From Candidatus Palauibacter scopulicola (GTDB taxonomy: Bacteria > Gemmatimonadota > Gemmatimonadetes > Palauibacterales > Palauibacteraceae): a stretch of 64,000 nt of DNA. Under the pieces are notes generated by a model. That model did no database searches and had not been told where the DNA came from. It saw only the letters and a list, made by a program, of their open reading frames with translations. Shown here piece by piece: positions 44,103 to 64,000 of this stretch; position 1 is the stretch's first letter, and each line of letters begins with the position of its first letter. The position numbers were made by a program, and so were the translations under genes. The stretch spans positions 161,181 to 225,180 of the forward strand of contig NZ_CANPWG010000065.1 of assembly GCF_947581915.1 (NCBI RefSeq). The letters are read 5' to 3'.

Positions 44103-44265
44103 ACTGACCGGCGTCGATCGCCGGGACGGGATCGGGCGGGAGCCTCTCGCGCCCGCGCGACCGGTTCGCCATTCTGTGGTCGACTTGTTTACACGGGCCG
44201 ATAACCTTCACTCAACGTCCGGGCGCCGACATGCCGCCAGCCGCTCGACCCGCCACCCCGAATCC

Positions 44266-46340: not shown

Positions 46341-46708
46341 TCGAGTCCATCTTCGACTCCGCGCTCGGACTGTACAACTACTGGGTCGTCATCTTCCTGA
46401 TGATGACGGGGTTCTACATCGTCATCTCGCGCGGGAACCTCATCAAGAAGGTCATCGGACTCAACATCTTCCAGGTCTCGGTCTTCCTCTTCTACATCAC
46501 CGTCGGAAAGGTCAGCGGAGGCACGGCACCGATCACGGCCGAGGGGTTCGAGGTCTACAGCAACCCGCTCCCCAGCGTCCTCATCCTGACCGCGATCGTC
46601 GTGGGCGTCGCGACGACCTCCGTCGCCCTCTCGCTCGTCGTCCGCATCCGTGAAGCGTACGAGACGATCGAGGAGGACGAGATCTACGCGCAGGACGACC
46701 CCCGATGA
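46337..46708 (+). CDS. mrpC: Mrp-type antiporter subunit C (NuoK-like)
   Basis: NuoK/MnhC-like three-TM protein (VIGLNIFQVSVFLFYITVG); 123 aa. Confidence 0.8.
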   Translation: MIESIFDSALGLYNYWVVIFLMMTGFYIVISRGNLIKKVIGLNIFQVSVFLFYITVGKVSGGTAPITAEGFEVYSNPLPSVLILTAIVVGVATTSVALSLVVRIREAYETIEEDEIYAQDDPR

Positions 46709-48204
46709 ACTGGCTGACCTCGGCGGTCGGAGATCAACTGCCGGTCCTGCAGGTCGTCATTCCGCTCCTGGCGGCGCCGCTCTGCATCATCCTGCGGCGG
46801 CGCTCCCTGGTGCTGCCCTTCGCGATCATCGTGTGCTGGGCCGCGTTCGGCGTCTCCGTCGCGTTGCTCCAGGAGGTGCTCGAGGTCGGCGCCATCACCT
46901 ACGAACTGGGGGGCTGGGCCGCGCCGTGGGGCATCGAGTATCGCGTCGACGCCCTCGGCGCCTTCGTGCTTCTCTTCGTGTCGGGAATCGGCGCGCTCGT
47001 GCTGACCTATGCGCCGCGCAGTCTGATCGATGAGGTTCCCGCCGGCCGGCAATACCTCTTCTGCACGCTCTACCTGCTCTCCCTCACCGGCCTGCTCGGA
47101 ATCGCGATTACCGGCGACCTCTTCAACGTCTTCGTCTTCCTCGAGATTGCGGCGCTCTCCTCGTACGCCCTGATCGCGCTCGGAGGGCGCAGGCAGGCGC
47201 TGCCCGCGGCGTTCCAGTACCTGGTCATGGGTACGATCGGGGCCACGTTCATCCTCATCGGCATCGGTCTCATGTACCAGATGACCGGGACGCTGAACAT
47301 GGTCGACATGGCCGACCGGCTGCCCGCCGTCGAGGGCATGCGGACGGCGCTCGTCGCCTTCGGCTTCCTCACCGTGGGCATTGCCCTGAAGATGGCGCTC
47401 TTCCCGCTCCACGTCTGGCTGCCCAACGCCTACGCGTACGCGCCGTCCGTCGTCAGCGCCTTTATCGCGGCGACCTCGACCAAGGTCTCCGTCTACATCC
47501 TGCTGCGCTTCATGTTCAGCGTGTTCGGGCTCGAATTCTCGTTCGAGCACCTCGGGCTGGGGCGCGCGCTCATGCCGCTCGCCCTGGCCGGGATCTTCGT
47601 GGCCTCCACGGTCGCGATCTTTCAGCGCAACATTAAGCGGATGCTCGCCTATTCGTCGGTGGCCCAGGTCGGATACATGGTCCTGGGAATCAGCTTCGCG
47701 ACGGCGACCGGGCTCACCGGGGGCATCGTCCACCTGTTCAACCACGCGCTCATCAAGGGCGGGCTCTTCATGGCCATGGGGTGCATCATGCTGCGGCTGC
47801 ACTCCGTCGACCTCGATGACATGGCCGGGATCGGACGCGCGATGCCGTGGACGATGGCCGCGTGGGCGCTCGGTGGCCTCGGCCTCATCGGGGTCCCGGC
47901 GACGGCGGGCTTCATCAGCAAGTGGTACCTCATCGAGGCGGCGTTGGAGCAGGGCAGCGTCCTCGTCGCGGTCCTCCTGCTCCTCAGTTCGCTGCTGGCC
48001 CTCGTCTACGTGTGGCGCGTGGTCGAGACCGCCTTCTTCCACGAACCGAGCGAGCGGGCGCGCGAGGCGCGCGAGGCGCCGCTTTCGATGCTGGTCCCGA
48101 CGTGGGTGCTGCTCGGCGCGACGGTCTTTTTCGGCATCTACACGGCGTACTCGGCGGGCGTGGCGGAGCAGGCGGCGGAGGCCGTGCTCGGCGGGCTCCG
48201 GTGA
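46705..48204 (+). CDS. mrpD: Mrp-type antiporter subunit D (NuoN/M-like)
   Basis: Proton-pumping NuoL/M/N family motifs (LFNVFVFLEIAALSSYALI, HLFNHALIKGGLFMAMG); 499 aa. Confidence 0.85.
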   Translation: MNWLTSAVGDQLPVLQVVIPLLAAPLCIILRRRSLVLPFAIIVCWAAFGVSVALLQEVLEVGAITYELGGWAAPWGIEYRVDALGAFVLLFVSGIGALVLTYAPRSLIDEVPAGRQYLFCTLYLLSLTGLLGIAITGDLFNVFVFLEIAALSSYALIALGGRRQALPAAFQYLVMGTIGATFILIGIGLMYQMTGTLNMVDMADRLPAVEGMRTALVAFGFLTVGIALKMALFPLHVWLPNAYAYAPSVVSAFIAATSTKVSVYILLRFMFSVFGLEFSFEHLGLGRALMPLALAGIFVASTVAIFQRNIKRMLAYSSVAQVGYMVLGISFATATGLTGGIVHLFNHALIKGGLFMAMGCIMLRLHSVDLDDMAGIGRAMPWTMAAWALGGLGLIGVPATAGFISKWYLIEAALEQGSVLVAVLLLLSSLLALVYVWRVVETAFFHEPSERAREAREAPLSMLVPTWVLLGATVFFGIYTAYSAGVAEQAAEAVLGGLR

Positions 48205-49667
48205 GCGGCATGGTGCCGCTGTACTGGGCGCTGGCGATCCCGCTCGCCGGCGCCGTGCTCATCGCCCTGTTCGGCCGCTGGCCCAACATCCGGGAAGCCG
48301 TCACGCTCGCCACCGGCGCGGCGCTCTTCTGGTTCGTCGCGTCGCTCCTGCCGCACGTCCTTGCCGGCGCGACCCCCGGGGTGCTCATGGTGCGGCTGCT
48401 TCCCGGCGGCCTCTCCCTCGTGCTCCGGCTGGAGCCCCTCGGGATGCTCTTCGCCCTGGTCGCGGCCGGGCTCTGGATCGTCACTTCGCTGTACTCGATC
48501 GGCTACATGCGGGGACACGCGGAGGTGCACCAGACGCGGTTCTACGTCTGTTTCGCGGTCTCCATTTGCGCCGCCATGGGCGTGGCGCTCGCGGGCAACC
48601 TGCTCACGCTGTTCCTCTTCTATGAGGTGCTGACGCTCTCGACCTACCCGCTCGTCTCGCACCACGGGACGCCGAAGGCGATGAAGGGCGCCCGCACGTA
48701 TCTGGGCATCCTCGTCACCACATCCGTCGCGTTTCTGCTCCTCGCGGTCGCGTGGACCTGGGTGCTCGCCGGCACGCTCGACTTCCGCGTCGGGGGGATC
48801 CTGGCCGGCCAGGCGAGCGACGGCGTGCTCCTCGTCCTGCTCGCGCTCTTCGTGTTCGGGACGGGGAAGGCCGCCCTCATGCCGGTCCATCGCTGGCTGC
48901 CCGCCGCCATGGTCGCGCCGACGCCCGTGAGCGCGCTCCTGCACGCGGTCGCGGTCGTGAAGGCCGGCGTGTTCACGATCATGAAGGTCGTCATCTACAT
49001 CTTCGGTCTCGACCTGCTGAGCGCGACCGGGATCAGCGTGTGGCTCATGTACGCCGCCGGCTTCACCGTCATCGCGGGCTCGCTCGTGGCCATGGCGCAG
49101 GACAATCTCAAGCGGCGCCTCGCATATTCCACGGTGAGCCAGCTCTCCTACATCGTCCTCGGGGCGGCGCTCGCGAACGCCTGGGGCGTGGTCGGCGGCA
49201 GCATGCACATCCTCATGCACGCCTTCGGCAAGATCACCCTCTTCTTCTGCGCCGGCGCGATCTACGTCGCGGCGCACAAGACGGAGATCAGCGACATGCG
49301 CGGGCTGGGCCGCGCGATGCCGATCACGATGGCGGCCTTCCTCATCGGGGCCCTCAGCGTCATCGGCGTCCCGCCCCTCGGCGGGAGCTGGAGCAAGTGG
49401 TACCTGGCACTCGGGGCGCTCGACGCCGGGCAGATCCTCTTCGTCGCCGTCCTCATGGTCAGTTCGCTGCTGAACATCGCGTACCTCGTCCCGATCCCCA
49501 TCCGGGCGTTCTTCTCGAAACCCGCCGACGGGTCGGACCCGCCGCGCTTCAAGGAGGCGCCGGCGTTCTGCGTCGCGGCGCTCTCGTTCACGGCGGTCGG
49601 CTGCATCGTCCTCTTTTTCCTCGCGGACGATGTGTACCGCCTGCTCGTCCCCCTGGGCGGAGGGTAA
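48201..49667 (+). CDS. second NuoL/M/N-family antiporter-like subunit (MrpA N-terminal / MrpD paralog)
   Basis: FLFYEVLTLSTYPLV, LHAVAVVKAGVFTIMKV, ILMHAFGKITLFFCAG; ~488 aa. GTGA overlap with mrpD. Confidence 0.8.
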   Translation: MSGMVPLYWALAIPLAGAVLIALFGRWPNIREAVTLATGAALFWFVASLLPHVLAGATPGVLMVRLLPGGLSLVLRLEPLGMLFALVAAGLWIVTSLYSIGYMRGHAEVHQTRFYVCFAVSICAAMGVALAGNLLTLFLFYEVLTLSTYPLVSHHGTPKAMKGARTYLGILVTTSVAFLLLAVAWTWVLAGTLDFRVGGILAGQASDGVLLVLLALFVFGTGKAALMPVHRWLPAAMVAPTPVSALLHAVAVVKAGVFTIMKVVIYIFGLDLLSATGISVWLMYAAGFTVIAGSLVAMAQDNLKRRLAYSTVSQLSYIVLGAALANAWGVVGGSMHILMHAFGKITLFFCAGAIYVAAHKTEISDMRGLGRAMPITMAAFLIGALSVIGVPPLGGSWSKWYLALGALDAGQILFVAVLMVSSLLNIAYLVPIPIRAFFSKPADGSDPPRFKEAPAFCVAALSFTAVGCIVLFFLADDVYRLLVPLGGG

Positions 49668-49670
49668 GCC

Positions 49671-49982
49671 ATGGCCGCTGACACGCACGACACGGGCGGA
49701 CGGACGAAGGACCGGGGCCGGCACTACTTCGACGATCCGAAGCGCTGGAAGCGCCTGATCGCGATCCTGGTCGTGGTGTGCGGCGTGCTGTTCGCGCTCG
49801 ACTTCGTGAATTTCCTGCAGCAGCGAATGGGGTGGTGGGAGTTGCGCCACCCGGAGCGCGACTGGGAGGGCCTGCCGCCCTTCTACGCGGTCTACGGCTT
49901 CCTCGCGTACACGGCGATCGTCTACACCGCCAAGCTGCTCCGGAAGGGCGTAATGCGGGACGAGGACTACTATGATCGGTAG
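49671..49982 (+). CDS. small two-TM membrane protein, hypothetical
   Basis: 103-aa ORF between two antiporter-subunit genes, with a good hydrophobic core (LIAILVVVCGVLFALDFVNFL...FYAVYGFLAYTAIVYTAKLL). Confidence 0.45.
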   Translation: MAADTHDTGGRTKDRGRHYFDDPKRWKRLIAILVVVCGVLFALDFVNFLQQRMGWWELRHPERDWEGLPPFYAVYGFLAYTAIVYTAKLLRKGVMRDEDYYDR

Positions 49983-51714
49983 CCTTCCTCCCGCCGCGAT
50001 CATGATCCTCGGGGCGTTGCTCGTCCCCCTCCTCCGGGGCCGTGCGCGCACGGGCTGGGTCCTCCTCCTGCCCGTCGCGAGCCTCGCCGCCCTTCTCGCG
50101 GTGGGCGAAGGAGAGTTCGGGCAGATCTCGATCTTCTCGTACGAGCTGACGCTCGTCCGGATCGACGGGCTGAGCCGGATCTTCGGGTGGCTCTTCCACA
50201 TCGCGGCCTTCATCGGGCTCATCTTCGCGCGGCGCGGAGGGAGCGCGCTGGAAGATGCCGCGGCGCTGGTCTACGCGGGCGCCGCCATCGGAGCCGTGCA
50301 GGCCGGCGACCTGATCACGCTCTTCGTCTTCTGGGAGCTTCTGGCCCTGAGTTCCGTCTTTCTGGTGTGGGCGCGCGGCACGGAACGTTCCTACCGGGCG
50401 GGGATCCGCTACCTGATCGTGCAGGTCGGCTCCGGGGTCGTCCTCCTGGCCGGCATCATCGCCCACGCGCGGGCCACGGGCTCCGTCGCCTTCGACCACC
50501 TGGGGACGGGGACCCTGGCGACGGGGACGCTGGGGACGAACCTCATCCTCCTCGGAATCGGCATCAAGGCGGCCTTCCCGCTGCTGCACAACTGGCTCAC
50601 GGACGCCTATCCCGAGGCCACCTACAGCGGCGCCGTCTTCCTGAGTGCGTTCACGACCAAGGTCGCCGTTTACGCCCTGGCGCGGGGATACCAGGGCGAG
50701 GAGCTGCTGATCTGGGTCGGCGTTGTCATGACGATGTTCCCGATCTTCTACGCCGTGATCGAGAACGATCTGCGCCGGGTGCTCGGATACAGCATGATCA
50801 ACCAGATCGGCTTCATGGTCTGCGGCGTCGGAATCGGCACCGAGATGGCCGTGAACGGGGCGGTTGCGCACGCCTTCAACGACGTGCTCTTCAAGGGGCT
50901 CCTCTTCATGTCGACGGGGGCGCTGCTCTACCGCGCGGGCACGACGAAGTGCAGCGAGCTGGGCGGACTCTACAAGAGCATGCCGAAGACGGCGGGTTTG
51001 TGCGTCGTCGGCGCCGCCTCCATCTCCGCCTTCCCGCTGTTCAGCGGGTTCGTGAGCAAGTCGATGGTGATGGCGGCGGCGCTGGAGATGAACCTCGACA
51101 TCGTGTGGCTCTTCCTCCTGTTCGCCTCGGCCGGCGTGCTGCACCACGCGGGGATCAAGATCCCGTTCTACGGCTTCTTCGGGCCCGATTCCGGGATCCG
51201 CACGAAGGAGGCGCCGACGAGTATGCTCATCGCGATGGGGATGGCGGCCTTCCTGTGCATCCTCAACGGGTCGTGGCCAACGCTGTTCCTGTATCCGAAC
51301 CTGCCGTACGAGGTGACGTACGTGCCGTTCACCCCCGCGCACGTGATCAGCCAGCTGCAGCTGCTCTTCTTCGCCGTGCTCGCCTTCGTGTGGCTGCGGC
51401 TCACCGACCGGGAACCGCACGAGCTGCCGTCGACGAACCTCGACGCGGACTGGTTCTATCGCCGATTCGGCAGGGGGCTGGCGCTCGCGGCGGGGGGCGT
51501 CTCGTCGCGGCTGCGGGAAGCCGTCGCGGCGCGCACCGTGGTCGCGGCCGGCGACGTGATCGGATCGGCCAGGCGCTACATGGGCCCGAGCGGCGTGTTG
51601 GGGCGTACCTGGCCCACCGGAGTCTCCGTCATATGGGTTGCGATCCTGCTCCTGGTGTTCCTGCTCCTCTACTACGCGACTACGCCCGTCACGAACGCCC
51701 TCCCGCCGCCATGA
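49972..51714 (+). CDS. third NuoL/M/N-family antiporter-like subunit
   Basis: LFVFWELLALSSVFLV, HAFNDVLFKGLLFMSTGALL; 580 aa. Confidence 0.8.
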   Translation: MIGSLPPAAIMILGALLVPLLRGRARTGWVLLLPVASLAALLAVGEGEFGQISIFSYELTLVRIDGLSRIFGWLFHIAAFIGLIFARRGGSALEDAAALVYAGAAIGAVQAGDLITLFVFWELLALSSVFLVWARGTERSYRAGIRYLIVQVGSGVVLLAGIIAHARATGSVAFDHLGTGTLATGTLGTNLILLGIGIKAAFPLLHNWLTDAYPEATYSGAVFLSAFTTKVAVYALARGYQGEELLIWVGVVMTMFPIFYAVIENDLRRVLGYSMINQIGFMVCGVGIGTEMAVNGAVAHAFNDVLFKGLLFMSTGALLYRAGTTKCSELGGLYKSMPKTAGLCVVGAASISAFPLFSGFVSKSMVMAAALEMNLDIVWLFLLFASAGVLHHAGIKIPFYGFFGPDSGIRTKEAPTSMLIAMGMAAFLCILNGSWPTLFLYPNLPYEVTYVPFTPAHVISQLQLLFFAVLAFVWLRLTDREPHELPSTNLDADWFYRRFGRGLALAAGGVSSRLREAVAARTVVAAGDVIGSARRYMGPSGVLGRTWPTGVSVIWVAILLLVFLLLYYATTPVTNALPPP

Positions 51715-54500: not shown

Positions 54501-54724
54501 TGGGCGCCGTCGACCGGCTACTCGAACGACGGGCCGGGCCGTGGTCCGGGCGGGTCTGGGGACTGCTCCTCAACCTGGTCGCGAACGCCGTGGCGCTGTG
54601 GGGCGTCTCGTCGGTCATGCGGACCGGCGACGGCTGGACGTGGGTCGCCGTCGGCTGCGCGGCCACGGTCGTTTGCATCGCCGTGCTCGCGCGCCCCTCG
54701 CGGTCCCCGGGGTCGGAGGAGTGA
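54500..54724 (+). CDS. small membrane protein, hypothetical (74 aa)
   Basis: Two hydrophobic segments, packed between mntH and the acyl-CoA synthetase with 4-nt overlaps. Weak support. Confidence 0.3.
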   Translation: MGAVDRLLERRAGPWSGRVWGLLLNLVANAVALWGVSSVMRTGDGWTWVAVGCAATVVCIAVLARPSRSPGSEE

Positions 54725-56313
54725 GCGGCGCCGGGCGGAGCGACCGATCCCGCGGCCGCGATTCCAACCTCGGATACTGGCTCCGCGACGCCGCCGAGGC
54801 CTTCCCGGGCCGGGTCGCGCTCATCGACCTTTCGGGCCCCGTCCCCCGCGAAGTCACGTACGCCGAAATCGACGAGCGGATGGATCGCGTGGCGAACCTC
54901 CTCTCGGATGCCGGCATCGGGGCGGGCGACCGCTTCGTTCTGAGCGTCGGCAACCGCTTCGAGTTCGTCGAGATCCTCTTCGGAGGCATGCGCTGCGGAG
55001 CCGTCCCCGTTCCGCTCAACTTCAAGCTGTCGGAGGACTCGCTCGCGCACATCGTCCGGGACGCGGCCTGCCGGGCCGCCTTCGTCGAGACCGCGGCGAC
55101 CGAGCGCTCGGTCGCGGTCGTCGAACGGTTGGGGATCGAGAGAAGGTGGGACGTCGGCGGCGACGGCATGGGGGGCGAGCGGGGAGGCGCCGGCTGGCTG
55201 GACTACGAGAGCGCCCTCGCGGGATCGTCGCCCCGGTTCGATCCCCCGCGGCTCGATGCCCGCCGCCCGGCGTTCCAGCCCTACACGTCGGGGTCGACGG
55301 GCAAGCCCAAGGGCGTCGTCCTCTCCCACGAGGGCCAACTCTGGTGGGTGCGCTGCCTGCGGAAGTACTGGCCGGCCGACCCCGGCGACCGGGCTCTCGT
55401 CGCCGTACCCCTCTACCACAAGAACGCGATGGCCGGGGCCATCAAGCCCCTGCTGCAGGCCGGGGCCTCGGTCGTGATTCTGCCCGGCTTCTCCCCGGAA
55501 CCGTTTCTTCGGGCCCTCAGCGGGTACCGCTGTACGCAGGTGGGCGCCGTCCCCGCCGTGTTCGCGATGGTCCTGGATCGGATGGATCTGATCGAGAAGC
55601 TCGATTTCTCGGCGCTTCGGAAGGTCACGCTGGGCTCCGCCCCGGTGCAGCCCGAACTGATGGACGCGGTCGAGCGCGCGTTCGACATCGAAGTCGGCGA
55701 GAGCTACGGGCTCACCGAAGGCGGGCCGGTCATGATCGGACCTGGGCCCGACGGACGCCCGACCCCGAGGGGAAGCTGCGGCGCGGCGTGGCCCGAGGGA
55801 GAGATCAAGCTCGTGCGCGATGGCAGCGAAGATCCGGAGTACGGAGAGCTATGGGTCCGGAATCCCGGCGTCACGACGGGCTATCACAATCTGCCCGAGG
55901 TGAACGCGGCCCGGATCCGGGACGGCTGGCTCGCCACGGGCGACCTCTTCTTCCGCGACGGGGAGGGCTTCTACTACTTCCGCGGCCGCACCGACGACAT
56001 GTTCAACTCCGGCGGCGAGAACATCTATCCCAAGGAGGTGGAGGACCTGCTGCTCTCCCATCCCGATGTCCGTGACGCGACCGTCGTGCCCGTGCCCCAC
56101 GCCCTCAAGGGTGCGGTCCCGGCCGCGGTGGTCCGGCTCAGAACCGAGGCGACCGTCACGGCCGAATCCCTCAAGCGGTACACGCTCGAGCGGGGACCCG
56201 CCTATGCGCACCCCCGTCGCATCGCGATCGTGGAGGAGATGCCGCTCACCGGCGTGGGGAAGGTCGACCGGGCGGCGATCCTCGGCGTGCTGGGAGACGG
56301 CGGCGCGGGGTGA
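54721..56313 (+). CDS. AMP-dependent acyl-CoA synthetase/ligase (ANL superfamily)
   Basis: AMP-binding motif YTSGSTGKPKGV, plus GYGLTEGG, GDLFFRDGEGFYYFRGRTDD and IYPKEVE. Confidence 0.85.
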   Translation: MSGAGRSDRSRGRDSNLGYWLRDAAEAFPGRVALIDLSGPVPREVTYAEIDERMDRVANLLSDAGIGAGDRFVLSVGNRFEFVEILFGGMRCGAVPVPLNFKLSEDSLAHIVRDAACRAAFVETAATERSVAVVERLGIERRWDVGGDGMGGERGGAGWLDYESALAGSSPRFDPPRLDARRPAFQPYTSGSTGKPKGVVLSHEGQLWWVRCLRKYWPADPGDRALVAVPLYHKNAMAGAIKPLLQAGASVVILPGFSPEPFLRALSGYRCTQVGAVPAVFAMVLDRMDLIEKLDFSALRKVTLGSAPVQPELMDAVERAFDIEVGESYGLTEGGPVMIGPGPDGRPTPRGSCGAAWPEGEIKLVRDGSEDPEYGELWVRNPGVTTGYHNLPEVNAARIRDGWLATGDLFFRDGEGFYYFRGRTDDMFNSGGENIYPKEVEDLLLSHPDVRDATVVPVPHALKGAVPAAVVRLRTEATVTAESLKRYTLERGPAYAHPRRIAIVEEMPLTGVGKVDRAAILGVLGDGGAG

Positions 56314-57272
56314 GCGAGCCGCTCGTCGTCGGGGCCAGGAGGTCGCCGCTCTCCCGGGCGCAAGCCGCCTGGGTGGGCGAACGGCTGCGCGAACGCTGGC
56401 CGGAGCTGTCCGTCGAATACCGGTTCATCTCCACCGCCGGGGACCGCGATCCCGGGACGCCGCTTCCGGAGATCGGGGGGAAGGGGCTGTTCACCGAGGA
56501 CCTCGAACGCGCCCTCCGGAAAGGGGACATCGACGTCGCGGTGCATTCCCTGAAGGACCTGCCGACGGACCTCCCCGATGGATTGACGCTGGGCGCGGTC
56601 CCCTCCCGCGAAGATCCCCGCGACGTCCTCGTGGTCCGCGAATCGCCGGTTGCCGCGCCCCGGGACACGGGCGGACGCGACCTCCTCCGACGTCTGCCCT
56701 CCGGCGCACGGGTCGGCACGTCGTCGCTGCGGCGCGCCGCGCAGTTGCGCGCCGCGCGGGCCGACCTCGAGCCGCGGCCGATCCGCGGGAATGTCGACAC
56801 GCGGCTCCGCAGGCTGGAGGACGGCCGCTTCGAGGCGCTGGTGCTGGCGGCAGCCGGGCTCCGGCGGCTCGGTCTGTGGCCCCGGGGCGCCCGCATCCTG
56901 GATGAGGACTGGCTACCCGCTCCCGGCCAGGGCGCGCTCGGGCTCCAGTGTCGGGACGGAGAGGATGGCATGGCCGCTCGCGTCGGGGCGCTGGACGACC
57001 CGGGCGTCCGAGCCGAGGTGACCGCCGAGCGGGCCCTGCTCGCGGCGCTCGAAGGGGGTTGCCGGGTTCCGATCGCCGCCCGCGCGTGGCTGCGGGGGGG
57101 AGATCTCTGGCTCCGCTCAGCCGTCTACGACGTGGACGGTGGCCCGCCGGTCGAAGCGGCCGGAACGGGGTCGCGCGCTTCGGCCGGCGCACTCGGCCGC
57201 GGGCTGGCGGAACAGTTGTTGAAGGCGGGGGCGTCCCGCCTCGTGGAGCGGGCGCGGCGGCTCAGCCCGTGA
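56310..57272 (+). CDS. hemC: hydroxymethylbilane synthase (porphobilinogen deaminase)
   Basis: VVGARRSPLSRAQA, VHSLKDLP, RGNVDTRL and a C-terminal dipyrromethane cofactor Cys region. Confidence 0.9.
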   Translation: MSEPLVVGARRSPLSRAQAAWVGERLRERWPELSVEYRFISTAGDRDPGTPLPEIGGKGLFTEDLERALRKGDIDVAVHSLKDLPTDLPDGLTLGAVPSREDPRDVLVVRESPVAAPRDTGGRDLLRRLPSGARVGTSSLRRAAQLRAARADLEPRPIRGNVDTRLRRLEDGRFEALVLAAAGLRRLGLWPRGARILDEDWLPAPGQGALGLQCRDGEDGMAARVGALDDPGVRAEVTAERALLAALEGGCRVPIAARAWLRGGDLWLRSAVYDVDGGPPVEAAGTGSRASAGALGRGLAEQLLKAGASRLVERARRLSP

Positions 57273-57891
57273 GGCGGCGCGAACCGTCTCCCTGGAATCC
57301 GTACATGAGAGTCACGCATCCGGGCGTCGCCTGCGGGCAGTAATAGCTCAGGATCCTCAGCTTCGCGTAGCGCCCCTCCGCCGTCCGGATCACGTAGGTC
57401 TCGTCCTTCGGTTCGAGGAGGTGGGAGAAAAATCCGTACCGGTACCAGCGTTCGAGTCCGGGCGTCGCCGGGCCGTCCTCCAGCGCGCCCTCCGTCGTCG
57501 CGTAACCGGACGCCGGAGCCTCCGTCACAGCCTCCCACGGGGCGCCGATGGCGATCGCCCCCCCGGCCCCGGGATATCCGCTGCCACCGTTGACAACGAG
57601 GTGGTACCGGTTGAGGGCGAGGTCCCAGCCGGCGAGCGGACCGCCGACCGCGCTCCCCTTGTCGAAATCGAAGTAGACCCAGTGCGAGCCGTCCCGGGCA
57701 TCGACGGTGACGGTGTCCACGACGAACCGGTCCACGGGGGGGCGCGGGCCGACGGGAGAAGGAACGAAGGTCACGGGGTCGGGCCTCGTGAACGAGCCGG
57801 CAACGACGACGACGAGGATGAACAGGAACACGGCCCCCGCGACGTACAGTACAACCGGCCGGTCCCCGTCCGTCCGGTCCCCGCCCTTCAC
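57262..57891 (-). CDS. hypothetical membrane-anchored protein, possibly HmuY-like (tentative)
   Basis: GTG start at 57891 shares GTGA with the stop of the upstream small ORF. There is an N-terminal TM (VVLYVAGAVFLFILVVVVAG) then a beta-rich domain (WVYFDFDKG...WDLALNRYHLVVNGG...YAKLRILSYY). The similarity to the HmuY heme-binding family is from memory only and unverified. Confidence 0.45.
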   Translation of the reverse strand: MKGGDRTDGDRPVVLYVAGAVFLFILVVVVAGSFTRPDPVTFVPSPVGPRPPVDRFVVDTVTVDARDGSHWVYFDFDKGSAVGGPLAGWDLALNRYHLVVNGGSGYPGAGGAIAIGAPWEAVTEAPASGYATTEGALEDGPATPGLERWYRYGFFSHLLEPKDETYVIRTAEGRYAKLRILSYYCPQATPGCVTLMYGFQGDGSRRLTG

Positions 57892-58115
57892 CGTCCTCGG
57901 TGCCACGGGGAATCGTGCCGCGTTCCGCTCAGGAACCGGGCCAGGTTGGCGAGATAGTAGGCGAGCGCCGCCGTCGCGAGCGCGAAGATCACGCCGATTG
58001 CCAGCGCCCCGAGACTCCCGGCGCTCGCGAAGATCCGGAATTCCCACGCGGCGAAGACGGCGCAGAAGACGATGGCCGTCGCGATGAGAAAACGGTGAAA
58101 CCCGATGATCGACAT
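57888..58115 (-). CDS. small membrane protein, hypothetical (~75 aa)
   Basis: MSIIGFHRFLIATAIVFCAVFAAWEF...LGALAIGVIFALATAALAYYL. Translationally coupled (GTGA) to the downstream gene. Confidence 0.35.
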   Translation of the reverse strand: MSIIGFHRFLIATAIVFCAVFAAWEFRIFASAGSLGALAIGVIFALATAALAYYLANLARFLSGTRHDSPWHRGR

Positions 58116-58225
58116 GGGATGTTCCGATTCACGGTGGACTTCGGTCCGTCTGCCGGACATCGTACGAAGGCGGGACGCGAGCCGAAACTTCGCCTCCATC
58201 CCCTGTTGACCCTCTGCCGGCCCGA

Positions 58226-59134
58226 TTGGAGCTTCCACTCCCCATGAGTTCCGGATTTCGCACCTACCACGAAGTGGACGAACTGCGCTCGGATCTCCCG
58301 GATCAGATCGCGGCCGGGGACGAGCGCGTGTCCGTGCGGCTCGCTTCCGTCGCCCGCGTCATCGCGGTGATGAGCGGCAAGGGCGGGGTGGGGAAGAGCC
58401 TCGTCTCCGCCCTTCTCGCGACCGCCCTCGCCCGGGGGGGGGATCGCGTGGGCCTGGTCGATGCGGACCTCAACGGCCCCAGCGTGCCGCGCCTTCTCGG
58501 CATCGAACCCGAAAGCCTCGCCGAATCCCGGGATGGGTTCGCACCGCCCGCTTCGCGCGCCGGAGTCCGCGTCATGTCGATGGCGTTCCTCACGGAGCCG
58601 GACCGCGCCCTCACGTGGCGCGAGCCCGCCGACGCCGGCTTTGTGTGGCGTGGCGCCCAGGAGCGGGGGGCCCTGCGGGAATTCCTGTCCGATGTCGCGT
58701 GGGGAGAACTGGATGCGCTCCTCGTGGACCTGCCGCCGGGTACCCAGCGGCTCGCCGAACTCCACGCGCTCGTCCCCGGAATCGCCGGCATCGTCGCGGT
58801 CACCATCCCGAGCGCCGCCTCCCGCGACGCGGTGGCGCGTTCGCTCGATCTCGCTCGGAGACGCGGCCTTCCCATCCTGGGACTCGTGGAGAACCTGTCG
58901 GGGGTTCGCTGCGACGCCTGCGGAGAGCTTGCTCCGCTGCACGCCGGTGACGCCGGGGCCGAACTGGCGGGCCGTTTCCGGGTTCCCCTGCTTGCGCGCC
59001 TCCCCTTCGATGCGGCGCTGGGGGCCGCGGCGGACGAGGGACGGCTCGAGGAATGGCTGGCGGGCGGGCGCGGAGCCGCGGAGGCGCTCCGGAAGGTGGT
59101 CGACGTGCTTCACGCGGCGCGCGCGGCGCGATGA
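58226..59134 (+). CDS. apbC: Mrp/NBP35-family Fe-S cluster carrier ATPase (ApbC-like)
   Basis: Deviant Walker A SGKGGVGKS, and a CxxC near the C-terminus (RCDACGE). Confidence 0.9.
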   Translation: MELPLPMSSGFRTYHEVDELRSDLPDQIAAGDERVSVRLASVARVIAVMSGKGGVGKSLVSALLATALARGGDRVGLVDADLNGPSVPRLLGIEPESLAESRDGFAPPASRAGVRVMSMAFLTEPDRALTWREPADAGFVWRGAQERGALREFLSDVAWGELDALLVDLPPGTQRLAELHALVPGIAGIVAVTIPSAASRDAVARSLDLARRRGLPILGLVENLSGVRCDACGELAPLHAGDAGAELAGRFRVPLLARLPFDAALGAAADEGRLEEWLAGGRGAAEALRKVVDVLHAARAAR

Positions 59135-59574
59135 AGTTCCTCTGCGTGGACTGCGACCGGCAGATGGCCTTCGACGAGCGGGCCGTGCCCGGCGACGGCA
59201 CGATGGCCGCCGTCTTCAGGTGTCCCTCCTGCGGGCGGAAGACCGCGATGCTCGCCAACCCCATGGAAACGCAGCTCGTGAGTTCGCTCGGCGTGAAGGT
59301 GGGAGGCCGCACCGTCCCGAACGAGAACTTTGAAGGCATCCGCGCCGGCGTGGAGCAGGCGCGCGACGAAGCCCCGTCCGCACCGCCGTTGACGAACCCC
59401 GGACCCGTGCGCTGGAACGTGGACGCGGTCGAGCGCCTCGGCCACGTGCCCTCCTTCGTGCGGGGGATGGTGAAGAAGATCTACAACGAATACGCCCGGG
59501 AACGCGGGATCGAGGAGATGACGCCCGCCGTCATGGACCGGGCCCGGTCCGATCTCGGCCTGGAAGGCATGTAG
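59131..59574 (+). CDS. zinc-ribbon + PCP_red-domain protein (protochlorophyllide-reductase 57 kDa-subunit C-terminal-like domain)
   Basis: N-terminal CVDCD...CPSCG zinc ribbon. The C-terminal VRWNVDAVERLGHVPSFVRGMVKKIYNEYARERGIEEMT matches the PCP_red consensus (W..EA..RL..IP.FVR......E..A...G...IT). ATGA overlap with apbC. Confidence 0.6.
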   Translation: MKFLCVDCDRQMAFDERAVPGDGTMAAVFRCPSCGRKTAMLANPMETQLVSSLGVKVGGRTVPNENFEGIRAGVEQARDEAPSAPPLTNPGPVRWNVDAVERLGHVPSFVRGMVKKIYNEYARERGIEEMTPAVMDRARSDLGLEGM

Positions 59575-59580
59575 CCGGCG

Positions 59581-59871
59581 GTGACGGATGGCGGCGGAGG
59601 GGTGAGCGATACGCGTGAAGGGGCGGGGGCTCCGGATCCGTCCGTGGAACGGGAGGTCCACGGGCTCCGCGCCGTCATTGACCGCGACCTGTGCGTCGGC
59701 TTCGGGGACTGCATCGAGGAGGCGCCGGAGGCCTTCGATCTCGACGAGGATGGGGTAGCGGTGTTCACCGGCCCGGAGCATGCCTCGCGGAAGCGCTTCA
59801 TCGAGGCGTGCGCGTCCTGTCCGGTCGATGCGATCACCGTCCTGGAAGACGGGATAGAGATCGTTCCGTGA
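59581..59871 (+). CDS. small single-cluster [3Fe-4S]/[4Fe-4S] ferredoxin
   Basis: IDRDLCVGFGDCIEEAPEAF...CASCPVDAI, a CxxGxxxC...C(P) ferredoxin pattern. Confidence 0.7.
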   Translation: MTDGGGGVSDTREGAGAPDPSVEREVHGLRAVIDRDLCVGFGDCIEEAPEAFDLDEDGVAVFTGPEHASRKRFIEACASCPVDAITVLEDGIEIVP

Positions 59872-60815
59872 ACCCCGGCGCCGCGGCGAAGCCCCCGCTG
59901 GTGACGGCGGAGGCGGTCGCCTACCGCTACCCCGATGGGAGTCCCGCCCTCCGGGACCTCTCGCTCGAGGTCCGGGAGGGAGAGCGCCTCGCGCTCCTCG
60001 GCCCCAACGGGTCCGGCAAATCGACCTTCCTCCGACTCCTCGGCGGCGACGGCGCTCCGGGGCTTCGTCGGGCCCCCGGTGTCGACGATGCCCGGCAGCG
60101 CTGGCTCGCCCCCGACCGGCCCGCCCTGCGCACGTGGCTCAGCGGGCGCGACAACGCGGCCGTCCTGCTCGAACTCCACGGCGCCGGACCCGGCGAGGCG
60201 CGCGCCACGGCGGACGCGTGGCTCGCGCGCTTCGGGCTCGAGGCGGACGCCGGCCGCCCCGCCGGCGCCTACTCGAGCGGCATGCGGAGACGGCTCGCGC
60301 TCGCGACCGCGTTCGGAACCGCGGCCCCGTTGCTCCTGCTCGACGAGCCGCTGGCCGGGCTCGATCCCGGTGGTCGGGCGGCCTTCGCCGAAGCCCTCGC
60401 CGACCACGCCGCCGACGGGGGGACCGCGGTGCTGTCCGCCCATGATCCCGTCTTCGCCGCCGCGCACTGCGACCGTGTCGCGTTCATCGTCGACGGGCGC
60501 TGCGCGGTGGTGGACACCCCGGCCCGGCTCCTGGAGCGCGTCGGCGCCCGCCCCCGCGTGGAGATCCGGTTCGCCGCCGGGCGGAGCCCCGACCCCGACA
60601 CCCTGGACCCCGCGCCGGAGGACGTGCGCACGTCGGTCTGGGACGAGAGCGCGGTGATCCTCGAGGTCGAGGACCCGAGCCGGGCGCTTCCCGAGACGCT
60701 GGCCTGGGTCCTGCGCGGCGGGGCCTCCGTCGCCTCGGTCGCCGTCCGGGAACCCAGTCTCGCGGACGCCTTTGCGACGCTCACGGGCCGGCGTCTGGAA
60801 GAGAGTTCCGAGTGA
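59868..60815 (+). CDS. ABC transporter ATP-binding protein (ABC-2 exporter type)
   Basis: Walker A GPNGSGKST, signature YSSGMRRRLALA and Walker B LLLLDEPLAGLD. GTGA overlap with the ferredoxin. Confidence 0.85.
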   Translation: MNPGAAAKPPLVTAEAVAYRYPDGSPALRDLSLEVREGERLALLGPNGSGKSTFLRLLGGDGAPGLRRAPGVDDARQRWLAPDRPALRTWLSGRDNAAVLLELHGAGPGEARATADAWLARFGLEADAGRPAGAYSSGMRRRLALATAFGTAAPLLLLDEPLAGLDPGGRAAFAEALADHAADGGTAVLSAHDPVFAAAHCDRVAFIVDGRCAVVDTPARLLERVGARPRVEIRFAAGRSPDPDTLDPAPEDVRTSVWDESAVILEVEDPSRALPETLAWVLRGGASVASVAVREPSLADAFATLTGRRLEESSE

Positions 60816-61519
60816 CGATCTGGCGCCTGGCGTGGCGCACGGCCCTGCGGCGGCGGCGGTTGTTCCTGTGGAACGTCGGGGTCCCGCTCCTCCTCCTCAC
60901 GCCCGTGGCCCTCAGCGCGACCGCGGCGCCGCACCGGGTCGCCGTCTTCGGCGTATTCATCGTCTTCTTCGGAGCCTTCGGCTCGGCCATCCCCGCCGTG
61001 CGCGACGCCCGCGACGGGTGGCTCGATGAGATCCTTCGCACCGGCTACTCCGCACCCCGCTGGCTCCTCGAGCGCACGCTCGCGGGCACGACGATCGACG
61101 CGCTCCAGCTCGCGCCCGCGGTCCTCGTCCTCCTGTGGTCGGCCGGCGGCGCCGGTGCGGGACCCGTCGTCCTCCTGTCGGCCCTCGCGACGTTGTGGTT
61201 CGCGAACCTGCTCGGTCCCCTTGTGGCGGCCGCGGTGCGTTCGCTCGCCGAAGCGGCCCTCGCTTCCGCCGCGCTTTCCCTCCTCCTCCTGCACTTCGCC
61301 GGCTTCTTCCGGACCCCCGTTCCGGGCTGGACCTCCTTCGTCGCCGAGTGGAATCCGTACGCGCCGCTGCGGGCCGCGCTCACGGCGGGCACCGGCGGGA
61401 TGCCCATGGACGCTTCCGTCTGGCTCCGCAGCCTTCTCGTCGCGGCCGGCGTGACCTTCGGGGCCGCGGTTTTGGCCTCGGATTGGAGCCGCCGCCTCCG
61501 CTGGCCGCGAACTCCCTAG
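60812..61519 (+). CDS. ABC-2-type transporter permease
   Basis: Six predicted TM segments; GTGA coupling to the ATPase. Confidence 0.6.
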   Translation: MTIWRLAWRTALRRRRLFLWNVGVPLLLLTPVALSATAAPHRVAVFGVFIVFFGAFGSAIPAVRDARDGWLDEILRTGYSAPRWLLERTLAGTTIDALQLAPAVLVLLWSAGGAGAGPVVLLSALATLWFANLLGPLVAAAVRSLAEAALASAALSLLLLHFAGFFRTPVPGWTSFVAEWNPYAPLRAALTAGTGGMPMDASVWLRSLLVAAGVTFGAAVLASDWSRRLRWPRTP

Positions 61520-61731
61520 TGCCGTTTGACTTTCCCCGTGGGCAGCCGCACCTTCTTGGCGCATAAGCGGGGTTCCGGACCTTCCGGCGGCCCCGACAAC
61601 CTTGGATCAGCGTCGCCGAATTCCTCGTCCGTGGCCGATTCTCGCGGACTGCGTACATCCGGGCTTCGCAGCCGGGCGAGGCTGGTGCGAGCAGCGTGAA
61701 CCGGCCGCAGCACGCCGTCCAACGGAGCGCC

Positions 61732-63993
61732 ATGTATCGAGAGGTATTCGTCCCGGTCGATAACTCGCGCGAGTCGGACTGGGCCGTGGACCGGGCCATC
61801 GAACTCTGCGCTCGCTCCGGAGGCCGCATCACCGGCTCTCACGTCTACGCCGCGCGCCTCCACGACATCCGGTTTCGCCAGCTCGAGATCGGCCTCCCGG
61901 CCCAGTTCCAGGAGCCGGCGGAGATCCGCAGGCAGCGCAAGATCCACGACAAGCTGATCGAGAAGGGGCTTCAGCTCATCTCGGACAGCTTCCTGGACCA
62001 GCTCCACCGCCGCTGCTCCGAAGCCGGCGTGACCCTCACGCGGCAGCTTCTCGAGGGCATCAACTACGAGGAGATCATCAACGAGGCGAACCGCGGCGGC
62101 GGACGTCTCCCGAGCCTCATCGGTTTCGACCCGAACATCGCCCACAACTACGACGGCAGCGAGAAGCAGCGCGCGGACGTCAAGCTGGGCGAGAACGGCC
62201 GGCTCGTGGCCGAGGACGAAGAGCAGGAGGACAAGCTCGCCGGTACCTCCGGTCGCGACTACGACCTCGTCACCATCGGCGCCCACGGCCTCGGGCGGCA
62301 GGAACGGAGCCGCCTCGGCGGCGTCGTCGCGCGCGCGCTCCGCGGGATCGAGAAAGACGCGCTCATCGTCCGCGACGACCGGCCGCTGGAGGGTGGCAGG
62401 TGGCTCGTCGGCGTGGACGGGTCGGCGTACGCCTACAAGGGCCTGCGCATCGCGCTCGACATGGCCCGCGAATACGGCGCCAAGGTCTACATCGCGAGCG
62501 CCTTCGACGTGCAGTACCACCACGTCGTCTTCCACAACATCAAAGACGTGCTCTCGGTCCAGGCCTCGAAGGTGTTCAAGTTCGAGGAGCAGGAGGAGCT
62601 CCACAACAACATCATCGACAAGGGCCTGCTCCGCCTCTGCAAGGCGAACATCAAGCGGGCCGAGGTGATGGCGAGCGAGTATCCCGAGGTCGAGATCGAG
62701 ACCCAGGTGCTGGTCGGGAAGCCGTTCGACGTGCTCCTCAAGTGGGCCGAGGAGATCGATCCATCGCTCATCGTCGTGGCCCGCCACGGCTCGCACCGCA
62801 TCGAGGGCACGGACATCGGCTCGCAGGCCGACAACCTCGTCGCCCTCGCGGACGCGAACATCCTGCTCATCGGCACCGGGAACGTCCGGCCCGAGGAGAT
62901 CCCCTGGATCGAGGAGGACGGCGAGGCCGGGCTCGAGTGGGCGCCCGAGGCGGAGGTGAGGATCCTGCGCGTGCCGCCGTTCGCCCTCGGGATCGCGCGC
63001 AAGGCCGTCGAGGAGTTCGTCCTCGAACACTACGGACCCGGGAGCCGCTACGCGGCCGCCTTCGTCCCGAATCCGAAGGACGAGAAGCAGTACCGGGCGG
63101 CTCGGCCGCCGGCGGACGGAGACGCCGTGGCCGGCAATGGGGCGAGCGGCACCGCGAAGGTGGCGCGTGACGCGCTGGAGACCGGCGCGGCGCCTTCGAT
63201 CGCCGAGGTCGGAGAGGCCGCCAACGGGCGCGGGAACGCGGAGAAGACCGAACTCTGGAATCGCGACCAGCTGCCCGTCGTGACGAATGATCGCCTCGAC
63301 GAGGCGATCAAGAAGCTCCTCCCGACCCACATGCAGCTCGTGATGGGGATCGGCGACGCGGAGGAACTCGCCCTCGCCGAGGTGAAGGCGGACGAGGCGA
63401 TGAAGCGCACCGTGGTGGAGACGAGCGACGCCGACGCGTTCGAGGCCCCGCTTCCGGTGATGGCGAAGTGCCCGGTCACGGACAACCAGATCCCGCGCGA
63501 CCGCACGGCCGCCGACCCGATCGTCTGGACGCACGAGGCGTTCGAGCGCCTGGGGCGCGTGCCGCTGATCGCCCGCCCCCTCGCCCGGAACACGGTGGAG
63601 CGCTTCGCCCGCGACCAGGGCATGTGGCGCGTGACCACCGTCGTCATGGACGAGAACAAGGACGCGATGATCGCGGCCGACGAGTTCGACCTCGACACGA
63701 TGCTCGTGATGTTCAACGAGTTGAAGGCGAAGCAGGCGCGGGCCGAAGCCGCCGGCGTTGACGGCATGAGCGAGGAGATGAAGCGCTTCATCGAGGAGGC
63801 GAAGGCCTCCGGGGTGACGCGCTGTCCGATCCGCGACATCGAGCAGCAGGCGGCGGACTGTCCCGTCGACTTCAAGATGGTGTCGCCCGACGATGCCCGC
63901 GCGGCGGTCGAGAAGTTCGCGCGCACGGAGCTCGGGGACGAGTCGGAAGCGGACGCCCGTCCCGCTTCGGAGCAGGGGCCGCGCGCGAAGTGA
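61732..63993 (+). CDS. multidomain protein: tandem universal stress protein (UspA) domains + two PCP_red domains + C-terminal Cys-Pro motif region
   Basis: UspA-like 1 (MYREVFVPVDNSRESDWAVDRAIELC ... DYDLVTIGAHGLGRQERSRLGGVVARALR). UspA-like 2 (WLVGVDGSAYAYKGLRIALDMA ... LIVVARHGSHRIEGTDIGSQADNLV). PCP_red 1 (EWAPEAEVRILRVPPFALGIARKAVEEFVLEHYG). PCP_red 2 (WTHEAFERLGRVPLIARPLARNTVERFARDQGMWRVT). C-terminal RCPIRD...CPVDF. Start at ATG 61732; the ORF-track GTG is at 61696. Confidence 0.75.
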   Translation: MYREVFVPVDNSRESDWAVDRAIELCARSGGRITGSHVYAARLHDIRFRQLEIGLPAQFQEPAEIRRQRKIHDKLIEKGLQLISDSFLDQLHRRCSEAGVTLTRQLLEGINYEEIINEANRGGGRLPSLIGFDPNIAHNYDGSEKQRADVKLGENGRLVAEDEEQEDKLAGTSGRDYDLVTIGAHGLGRQERSRLGGVVARALRGIEKDALIVRDDRPLEGGRWLVGVDGSAYAYKGLRIALDMAREYGAKVYIASAFDVQYHHVVFHNIKDVLSVQASKVFKFEEQEELHNNIIDKGLLRLCKANIKRAEVMASEYPEVEIETQVLVGKPFDVLLKWAEEIDPSLIVVARHGSHRIEGTDIGSQADNLVALADANILLIGTGNVRPEEIPWIEEDGEAGLEWAPEAEVRILRVPPFALGIARKAVEEFVLEHYGPGSRYAAAFVPNPKDEKQYRAARPPADGDAVAGNGASGTAKVARDALETGAAPSIAEVGEAANGRGNAEKTELWNRDQLPVVTNDRLDEAIKKLLPTHMQLVMGIGDAEELALAEVKADEAMKRTVVETSDADAFEAPLPVMAKCPVTDNQIPRDRTAADPIVWTHEAFERLGRVPLIARPLARNTVERFARDQGMWRVTTVVMDENKDAMIAADEFDLDTMLVMFNELKAKQARAEAAGVDGMSEEMKRFIEEAKASGVTRCPIRDIEQQAADCPVDFKMVSPDDARAAVEKFARTELGDESEADARPASEQGPRAK

Positions 63994-64000
63994 CCGGGGC

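Follow-up and report, generated by a model that had tools for sequence, protein, structure and literature searches.

A radical SAM and PCP_red gene set beside a bd-like respiratory complex in Candidatus Palauibacter: a candidate cofactor-maturation module

The stretch of DNA analysed here (the window, 64,000 nucleotides (nt) from Candidatus Palauibacter scopulicola) carries near its right-hand end a run of five genes on the forward strand. They encode, in order, a Mrp/NBP35 (ApbC-like) P-loop Fe-S carrier ATPase (Mrp; 58244-59134; PF10609, E = 7.8e-63), a 147-residue protein that joins a Zn ribbon to a PCP_red domain (ZnR–PCP_red, hereafter ZnPCP; 59131-59574; PF08369, 47.8 bits against a cut-off of 32.5), a single-cluster ferredoxin of 75-96 residues whose start possibly lies later than called (59581-59871; Fer4_13/Fer4_15, E = 7.6e-11 for Fer4_13), an ATP-binding cassette (ABC) ATPase of DrrA/ABCA type (59868-60815; ABC_tran, E = 6.1e-20) and a 235-residue ABC-2 permease with about six transmembrane (TM) segments (60812-61519; PF01061, ABC2_membrane, 44.2 bits). 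A non-coding gap of 212 nt (61520-61731) separates the permease stop at 61519 from the ATG at 61732 of the next gene on the same strand, which encodes a 753-residue protein with a tandem universal stress protein (Usp) region and two PCP_red domains (61732-63993, in an open reading frame from 61696; Usp E = 8.2e-30, PCP_red E = 4.5e-15). The first 11 nt of a forward-strand radical SAM/SPASM/PCP_red gene (63990-64000) overlap its end at a GTGA (63990-63993) and then run off the window. Domains were assigned by a Pfam search of the proteins in the 64-kb window, and equivalog families were compared through NCBIfam.

The five genes are closely packed. Mrp and ZnPCP share an ATGA (59131-59134, a 4-nt overlap); the ZnPCP gene ends with a TAG at 59574 and the ferredoxin gene opens with a GTG at 59581, leaving 6 nt between them; and the ferredoxin/ATPase and ATPase/permease junctions are each a GTGA (59868-59871 and 60812-60815). 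This coupling goes beyond chance, because the 4-nt overlap recurs across orthologous loci at 73/76 Mrp–ZnPCP, 37/39 ATPase–permease and 27/36 ferredoxin–ATPase junctions. An earlier note on this DNA had described five tightly coupled same-strand genes followed by a 212-nt gap, and the Pfam domains and the junctions read from the sequence both agree with it. One small correction concerns the start of Mrp: the TTG at 58226 is only a mechanical open-reading-frame start, and the likely one is the ATG at 58244, as called on the source contig.

In the loci measured, the Usp–PCP_red gene is preceded by a non-coding gap of 56-260 nt. This spacing points to two expression units, one made of Mrp, ZnPCP, ferredoxin and, where present, the ABC pair, the other of Usp–PCP_red, the radical SAM enzyme, a CydA-like protein and cytochromes; the 212-nt gap is probably their boundary. 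TTGACA-like boxes occur in the gap at some loci, and a promoter and terminator scan of 57200-64000 gave no signal stronger than in shuffled sequence. A leader RNA or riboswitch in front of the Usp gene was also considered and is unsupported: across lineages only the ribosome-binding site is kept, not the sequence of the gap. Rfam over the whole window returned a tmRNA and a tRNA-Sec only, with no match inside the cluster.

To what extent this arrangement is shared can be read from a scan of GTDB with one genome per species, which gave 506 stretches with a ZnPCP relative; the best 80 of the 506 were analysed by tblastn with all cluster proteins. Only loci with sufficient flanking sequence enter the denominators of the counts for cluster genes. 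In the 80 species loci the core order Mrp–ZnPCP–ferredoxin–Usp–PCP_red–radical SAM–CydA-like is near-invariant, and metagenome loci show it as well. Mrp lies directly upstream of ZnPCP in 72/72 loci, Usp–PCP_red is present in 72/73, the radical SAM–PCP_red gene in 69/69 and the CydA-like gene in 68/69, and a ferredoxin stands on one side or the other of the Mrp–ZnPCP pair in 76/80. Gene order had been chosen beforehand as the property on which the operon could fail; it is kept in more than 70 species-level genomes, and the operon was not refuted on this count.

The nearest relatives of the window are Candidatus Palauibacter genomes (Gemmatimonadota), in which the ZnPCP protein is up to 97% identical. 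The compared loci (numbered L001 onwards) are mainly from Gemmatimonadota and include a Rokubacteria metagenome-assembled genome (MAG; L050) and sponge MAGs labelled Gammaproteobacteria. By tblastn, the clusters of the latter (L057, L065, L076) look nearly the same as those of Longimicrobiales MAGs (L072, L075, L079), the two groups being alike in cluster coordinates and in identity to the window proteins; this likeness suggests mis-binning or recent transfer.

How the cluster goes on beyond the window is seen on the identical contig, on a metagenome scaffold of 470 kb and on a Gemmatimonadota chromosome of 4.0 Mb; the five genes prove to be its upstream unit, and the whole cluster counts at least 14 genes. 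Downstream of Usp–PCP_red come the radical SAM/SPASM/PCP_red gene, the CydA-like gene, three cytochrome genes (cytc1, cytc2 and cytc3), a CarboxypepD_reg lipoprotein gene, COX2-COX1-COX3-COX4 and a UbiA/CtaB-like gene. The full radical SAM gene (L001 14860-16272) encodes 470 residues. Its CX3CX2C motif is found in 69/69 orthologues, a SPASM region is present, and its C-terminus matches residues 450-508 of 2xdq_B, a PCP_red domain. The best NCBIfam families are NirJ2 (269.8 bits, cut-off 500), AhbD (265.5, cut-off 500), NirJ (177, cut-off 515) and AhbC (152, cut-off 650), with TIGR04053 also among them; every score falls short of its equivalog cut-off. The characterised members of the AhbC/AhbD/NirJ group of radical SAM enzymes all act on tetrapyrrole side chains, which they remove or convert (PMC10114771). 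The gene is itself often coupled to its neighbours, with a 4-nt overlap at 29/46 Usp–radical SAM junctions (a further 9 overlap by 1 nt) and at 29/65 radical SAM–CydA-like junctions.

The CydA-like protein (Cyt_bd_oxida_I, 606 residues) follows directly after the radical SAM enzyme, with a 4-nt overlap. It aligns to 6rko_A and 5doq_A only at query positions 52-247 (about the first 190-200 residues), with no match to the Q-loop, and a crude scan gives 13 hydrophobic segments, or some 13-14 TM segments. The equivalents of H19 and H186 are kept, E99 is replaced by Y, and E107 is kept, seven residues after that Y. Murali, Gennis and Hemp list the same residue signature for OR-N2 in their Supplementary Table 6 (bioRxiv 10.1101/2021.01.16.426971), and by this signature the CydA-like protein is of the OR-N2 type, as is NIDE0901, a proposed novel terminal oxidase of Nitrospira. 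Published OR-N2 operons contain several cytochromes c and an EbdC homologue, their electron donor being unclear (bioRxiv 10.1101/2021.01.16.426971). In the cluster described here, cytc1 is membrane-anchored with two CxxCH motifs, cytc2 is a membrane monoheme protein with one, and cytc3 combines two CxxCH motifs with an EB_dh (EbdC/NxrC-like) domain and a C-terminal anchor.

On the 4.0-Mb chromosome (L085 10001-20486), the CarboxypepD_reg lipoprotein gene lies between the bd-like/cytochrome c unit and an aa3-type COX2-COX1-COX3-COX4 operon downstream of it. The same succession is found at L036, L039, L049, L054, L055, L064, L068, L073, L074, L124, L132, L133 and L135, and L042 and L050 have the COX genes on the upstream side instead. 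L085, the sole compared locus long enough to show it, has a UbiA/CtaB gene after the COX operon. Given this steady pairing, the bd-like complex might be a feeder or partner of the heme-copper oxidase and not an oxidase that works alone.

The PCP_red domain, which occurs in ZnPCP, Usp–PCP_red and the radical SAM enzyme, corresponds by sequence and fold to the C-terminal domain of BchB/ChlB, and is found in up to three tandem copies per protein. In structures of dark-operative protochlorophyllide reductase, it may form a lid over the tetrapyrrole. ZnPCP belongs to a family of 292 clusters at 50% identity (E <= 1e-10). Its N-terminal four-cysteine ribbon (C5, C8, C31, C34) is invariant across 18 homologues, and the segment between ribbon and PCP_red (residues 41-59; 59251-59307) reads, invariantly, L-x-N-P-M-E-T-x-x-V-x-S-L-G...G-G. 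In the AlphaFold2 model, residues 43-89 are of low confidence, with a predicted local distance difference test score (pLDDT) below 50 for the NPMET segment; because this low confidence comes despite invariance, the segment may be a partner-binding motif. The C-terminal three-helix PCP_red domain is modelled at pLDDT 84-90 and superposes on 2kru with a root-mean-square deviation of 1.1 Å (TMt 0.75, Foldseek); 2ynm_D was matched as well. One lineage carries tandem ZnPCP duplicates (L093 1968-2832), and ZnPCP proteins with two or three PCP_red repeats occur in others (L090 1327-2142, triple; L091 10001-10768).

No other accessory protein is as conserved as Usp–PCP_red, which has two Usp and two PCP_red stretches (PCP_red 55.9 bits, cut-off 32.5) and is 66-84% identical across loci, with many invariant columns. 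The N-terminal half of its AlphaFold2 model matches the tandem Usp proteins Rv2623 and TTHA0350 (Foldseek E = 1.7e-14, TMt up to 0.82); model confidence is confined to this half and does not extend to the linker or the C-terminal parts. The sequence has a G-x9-G-S-like motif. Three Cys-Pro pairs, C580-P, C698-P and C710-P (63469-63474, 63823-63828 and 63859-63864), are invariant in the Gemmatimonadota orthologues. We considered these as heme regulatory motifs and a core feature of the protein, and dropped the idea since they are absent from the orthologues of L087, L093 and L098.

Mrp has the deviant Walker A motif GKGGVGKS in 72/73 orthologues and a CxxC (CDAC, residues 223-226 in the window protein) in at least 59/73. 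Its best NCBIfam families are MrpORP (221.4 bits, cut-off 450) and ApbC (142.7, cut-off 348), neither at equivalog level; the MrpORP match spans model positions 2-249 of 365, and the MrpORP C-terminal domain is missing from Mrp. Weak matches to TIGR01281 and Fer4_NifH were also recorded, Mrp and BchL being of a common P-loop class. The ferredoxin scores 43 bits against a profile cut-off of 24.5. The exact spacing of its Cx5C...Cx2C(P) motif is found in 59/76 orthologues, and the rest have an extra cysteine; its gene is placed downstream of ZnPCP or, in some lineages, upstream of Mrp.

The ABC-2 pair is the variable part of the unit. Its ATPase has intact Walker A, signature, Walker B and H-loop motifs. 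In NCBIfam it scores 129 bits for drrA and 93.8 bits for ccmA (cut-off 131.6), short of the cut-off in both cases; the nearest solved relatives are ABCA nucleotide-binding domains, and NosF is matched at 81 bits. The permease has no NCBIfam match and no solved relative, its only Pfam match being ABC2_membrane. A CcmAB heme exporter was therefore rejected as the identity of the pair, with ccmA below cut-off and a permease that is not of CcmB type. The earlier note had found an exporter with no obvious substrate, and none can be assigned from this generic ATPase and unmatched permease; it had also called the exporter an unusual companion. The pair is a facultative insert, lying between ZnPCP/ferredoxin and Usp–PCP_red in 38/72 loci. 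On a neighbour-joining tree of Usp–PCP_red (46 taxa) its distribution asks for at least 5 gains or losses.

A protein of about 120-130 residues, resembling four TM segments, occupies the ABC slot after ZnPCP in other loci or lies just upstream of Mrp (L057 10534-10893, L046 8756-9109, L025 8722-9078 and about 30 further loci). In the count by locus it is present in 23/64, together with the ABC pair in only 4, and is common in loci without the pair, so that the two are largely mutually exclusive. It is absent from the window and the Palauibacter lineage.

Among more distant ZnPCP relatives (about 40% identity), the module is rearranged yet intact, and stands beside genes of bd-like or heme-copper respiratory oxidases, in lineages that are Chloroflexota-like and in others. 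In L087 and L099, which are of Chloroflexota type, a cytochrome c/EB_dh gene and a COX operon are followed by Usp–PCP_red, Mrp, ZnPCP, a small TM protein, the radical SAM–PCP_red enzyme and a PNPOx-like protein; the protein cluster of their ZnPCP includes Anaerolineales entries, and the metagenome locus L099 begins within cytc3. L098 has a CydA-like and a cytochrome c gene and, further on, a PNPOx-like domain fused to Usp–PCP_red, then Mrp and ZnPCP. L093 runs Mrp, two ZnPCP paralogues, a small TM protein, radical SAM–PCP_red, Fer4, DUF6789 and Caa3_CtaG, and in L090 the triple-PCP_red ZnPCP precedes DUF420. The PNPOx-like domain, about 230 residues with weak similarity (E = 0.0014 and 0.0027; L098 4328-6277 and L087 12216-12923), is a separate gene after the radical SAM enzyme in L087 and is fused to the N-terminus of Usp–PCP_red in L098; it was not found in the window. 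The fusion links one more component to the module.

Upstream of the cluster, the recurrent neighbours are heme-related. Counts for these genes refer to the 59 loci with 5 kb or more of sequence on the upstream side. In the window, hemC, the gene for porphobilinogen deaminase (56310-57272, forward strand; Pfam Porphobil_deam, E = 1.2e-71), lies upstream, as in 32/59 loci. Between it and Mrp, on the reverse strand, is the gene of a HmuY-family protein with an N-terminal membrane anchor (57262-57891; PF14064, 55.1 bits against a cut-off of 27), found upstream in 39/59 loci. In phmmer this protein scores 54.3 bits to 8b6a_A and 46.9 bits to the HmuY chain 3h8t_A, and it has one TM segment, at residues 13-31. 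The stretch of HmuY that we presume to bear two heme-ligating histidines did not align reliably with it. Overlapping the start of its gene is that of a 75-residue two-TM protein (57888-58115, reverse strand, called on the source contig), with two hydrophobic segments, conserved in 32/59 loci and without a family match in Pfam or NCBIfam. Pfam, the contig gene calls and phmmer concur on the divergent pair of HmuY-like and small membrane protein beside hemC that had been noticed before. An AMP-binding (acyl-adenylate-forming) enzyme (54721-56313) overlaps the hemC start at 56310 by 4 nt, a pairing seen in about 10 close Gemmatimonadota/Palauibacter loci (L005, L009-L011, L014, L020, L022).

We lean towards reading the gene set as a dedicated cofactor-maturation module for the bd-like respiratory complex, the cofactor step being probably the tailoring or insertion of heme. 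Several lines of evidence point that way. First, the cluster runs on into the bd-like complex with its order and coupling conserved across loci, and the module travels together when rearranged and stays beside oxidase genes. Second, by sequence, the radical SAM enzyme groups with tetrapyrrole enzymes and PCP_red with a domain of the tetrapyrrole enzyme subunit BchB/ChlB. Third, the CydA-like protein bears the OR-N2 signature, Mrp has an intact Walker A and CxxC, and the heme-related neighbours hemC and the HmuY-like gene recur. Because the five genes lead a cluster centred on the radical SAM–CydA-like pair, the radical SAM enzyme is the likely client of Mrp and the ferredoxin. The earlier idea of an Fe-S or redox-supply module thus holds, and Mrp and ferredoxin remain its Fe-S components, though not as a free-standing pair.

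As to mechanism, the complex next to it would receive a heme or iron-porphyrin that the radical SAM enzyme tailors or inserts. This enzyme and the ferredoxin would get their [4Fe-4S] clusters from Mrp, and the ferredoxin would in turn be the electron source for S-adenosylmethionine (SAM) cleavage. ZnPCP, whose gene nearly always overlaps that of Mrp, might serve as an adaptor that ties Mrp to the partners with PCP_red domains, or might hand over the tetrapyrrole, and Usp–PCP_red might provide nucleotide-dependent control or scaffolding. The ABC-2 pair would add an optional membrane or export step in this lineage. More speculatively, since cytc3 has both CxxCH heme c sites of Sec type and a heme b domain like that of EbdC, a non-covalent heme would have to enter it in the periplasm, and the anchored HmuY-like protein and the facultative ABC-2 pair might serve this insertion.

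A more specific form of the proposal, which we put forward tentatively, as something possible rather than expected, is that Mrp, ZnPCP, ferredoxin, Usp–PCP_red and radical SAM–PCP_red make up an unrecognised dedicated heme-tailoring and insertion pathway for OR-N2 oxidases. Here the radical SAM enzyme, as one of the AhbD/NirJ clade, would make or insert a non-standard active-site heme, PCP_red would act as a portable domain for docking or for handling tetrapyrroles, and the ABC-2 pair or the four-TM protein, with the HmuY-like protein, would move heme to the EbdC-like heme b domain, on the periplasmic side, of a cytochrome exported by Sec.

Several points weigh against a maturation role. The functional claims are drawn from gene neighbourhood and family resemblance, and it is from these that we infer which proteins are clients, that the substrate is a heme and what PCP_red does. 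With 270 bits against 500, the radical SAM enzyme falls well short of every equivalog cut-off, and SPASM enzymes are often peptide-modifying. Even within BchB, PCP_red lacks an established function, the Cys-Pro motifs of Usp–PCP_red that could hint at heme binding are lineage-specific, and the ABC-2 pair is dispensable in half of the loci. In one lineage (L091, L094-L097), the Mrp–ZnPCP pair sits on contigs that end just downstream, and the 8-9 kb before it contain neither an oxidase nor a radical SAM gene; because no such partner is visible there, the pair may have a broader role.

The rival that fares best makes the radical SAM/SPASM enzyme a maturase of proteins or peptides, which installs a cross-link or a modified residue in the CydA-like protein or a cytochrome, with PCP_red as a protein-recognition or docking module and the five genes still supplying Fe-S clusters and electrons. 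PqqE, MftC, SkfB and sactipeptide maturases are indeed among the matches, the gene is translationally coupled to that of the CydA-like protein, and up to three tandem PCP_red copies per protein resemble an interaction scaffold. We nevertheless regard this as unlikely: the tetrapyrrole families NirJ2, AhbD, NirJ and AhbC score 150-270 bits against 94-140 for the peptide maturases, and the cluster has no conserved small gene for a precursor peptide.

It seems quite improbable, too, that the radical SAM enzyme is no more than an AhbD-like coproheme decarboxylase, the oxygen-independent heme b synthase of general heme biosynthesis in this organism, which neighbours the complex by chance. Its score is about half of the AhbD equivalog cut-off of 500, no AhbA, AhbB, AhbC or other late heme gene lies in the cluster or the window, and it is joined to the CydA-like gene in 68/69 loci and travels with Usp–PCP_red, Mrp and ZnPCP, company that a housekeeping enzyme would not need. 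These arguments prevail in our view over the virtual tie of AhbD as best match (265 bits), the presence of hemC upstream in 32/59 loci and the fact that oxidases are the main consumers of heme.

The earlier note had taken the five genes as self-contained and independent of their neighbours, with an exporter beside an Mrp that delivers Fe-S clusters to the ferredoxin. Mrp proteins are by family generic Fe-S carriers, and the conserved non-coding gap before the Usp gene sets the five genes apart, so that they may have a promoter of their own, but the unit almost never occurs without Usp–PCP_red, radical SAM–PCP_red and the CydA-like gene directly downstream, the PCP_red domain ties ZnPCP to both downstream PCP_red proteins, and the ABC pair is missing in half of the loci; we thus hold independence to be very unlikely. 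Equally hard to credit is a regulatory or energetic module, in which Usp–PCP_red senses nucleotide or stress and gates the assembly or activity of the oxidase or Mrp is a BchL/NifH-like reductase docking on PCP_red, for although the tandem Usp half matches the ATP-binding Rv2623 and TTHA0350, a G-x9-G-S-like motif is present, and Mrp shares its P-loop class with BchL, whose partner BchB is the source of PCP_red, Pfam and NCBIfam detect no DNA-binding or signalling output domain, the constant radical SAM enzyme favours chemistry over sensing, and Mrp, on sequence inspection only, has a carrier-type CxxC and not the NifH cluster ligands.

The chromosomal setting also corrects one impression. The region had been described as the most accessory-looking part of the window; it is instead a conserved chromosomal cluster embedded in housekeeping genes. 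A mobile island is excluded by the housekeeping genes in the rest of the window and by a G+C content of about 70% that is even along its length. Other genes of the window include those for an E1 dehydrogenase, AroA–Cmk, ribosomal protein S1, propionyl-CoA carboxylase, methylmalonyl-CoA mutase and ArgRS, together with riboflavin genes, HPr kinase/PTS, RecO, SelB, tmRNA, tRNA-Sec, Mla, a Mnh/Mrp antiporter and Nramp. The 659-residue open reading frame at 3815-5794 joins an EPSP synthase (residues 3-423) to a cytidylate kinase (443-654) in an apparent AroA–Cmk fusion. The tmRNA lies at 36734-37104 (147 bits), the tRNA-Sec at 41046-41137 (79.7 bits) and SelB at 33794-35704; with tRNA-Sec and SelB close by, the organism therefore makes selenoproteins. 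A Mnh/Mrp-type cation/proton antiporter operon (44176-51714; MNHE, MbhD/E-like and two Proton_antipo_M) stands upstream of 4HBT–ADH–Nramp.

Returning to the maturation module that we favour, several known systems offer partial parallels. The AhbC/AhbD/NirJ enzymes are the best radical SAM families, share the CX3CX2C motif and the SPASM auxiliary-cluster region, and depend on loaded Fe-S clusters and a source of single electrons, both of which could come from Mrp and the ferredoxin; the enzyme described here differs from them in scoring about half of the equivalog cut-offs, in its C-terminal PCP_red domain and in a bd-like neighbour in place of ahb or nir genes. HemW, a radical SAM-type heme chaperone that inserts heme b into the respiratory NarI (PMC10114771), is alike in concept, being an Fe-S-dependent member of the radical SAM family that supplies heme to a membrane respiratory enzyme (PMC10114771), but it is of the CgdH/HemN lineage and not a SPASM protein, and is without a PCP_red domain or a Mrp or Usp partner. 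ApbC, MrpORP and Ind1/NUBPL of complex I share PF10609, the deviant Walker A motif and the CxxC with Mrp, and set a precedent for a single-client carrier; unlike ApbC and MrpORP, Mrp scores below their cut-offs, lacks the MrpORP C-terminal domain and is obligatorily paired with ZnPCP.

BchB/ChlB of dark-operative protochlorophyllide reductase has the same PCP_red domain (PF08369) by sequence and fold, whereas the domain is here free of the nitrogenase-like core, has a Zn ribbon, a tandem Usp or a radical SAM enzyme as its fusion partner, and is set in a non-phototrophic respiratory context. With the OR-N2 clusters (NIDE0901 of Nitrospira; TO_1 of Ca. Manganitrophus) the complex shares the residue signature, some 13-14 TM segments in the CydA-like protein, several cytochromes c and an EbdC/NxrC-like heme b domain; the published descriptions of those clusters that we read are without radical SAM, PCP_red, Usp or Mrp accessories, and an aa3-type operon follows here. 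CcmAB, CydDC and NosFY are, similarly, ABC exporters embedded in maturation clusters of respiratory enzymes. The ATPase described here partly resembles CcmA (93.8 bits) and NosF (81 bits), and the pair is set apart by a score below the CcmA cut-off, a permease that matches neither CcmB nor a solved transporter, and its dispensability in half of the clusters. Each component comes from a known family, and the OR-N2 complex has been described bioinformatically. In the literature that we searched, we found no paper that connects bd-like oxidases with PCP_red, Usp, Mrp or a radical SAM enzyme, and no description of the OR-N2 cofactors.

The OR-N2 bd-like oxidases are widespread proposed terminal oxidases of Nitrospira and its relatives, whose oxygen affinity, electron donor and metabolic role are undetermined according to the papers that we read. 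A conserved radical SAM enzyme from a clade that modifies heme, encoded together with a dedicated Fe-S carrier, a ferredoxin and PCP_red partners, is a lead on the cofactor and assembly of these enzymes. The current annotations, ‘universal stress protein’, ‘PCP reductase family protein’ and ‘cytochrome ubiquinol oxidase subunit I’, conceal one coherent system. If the proposed role is true, Mrp/NBP35 proteins would gain a defined client, and PF08369 would gain its first function outside protochlorophyllide reductase.

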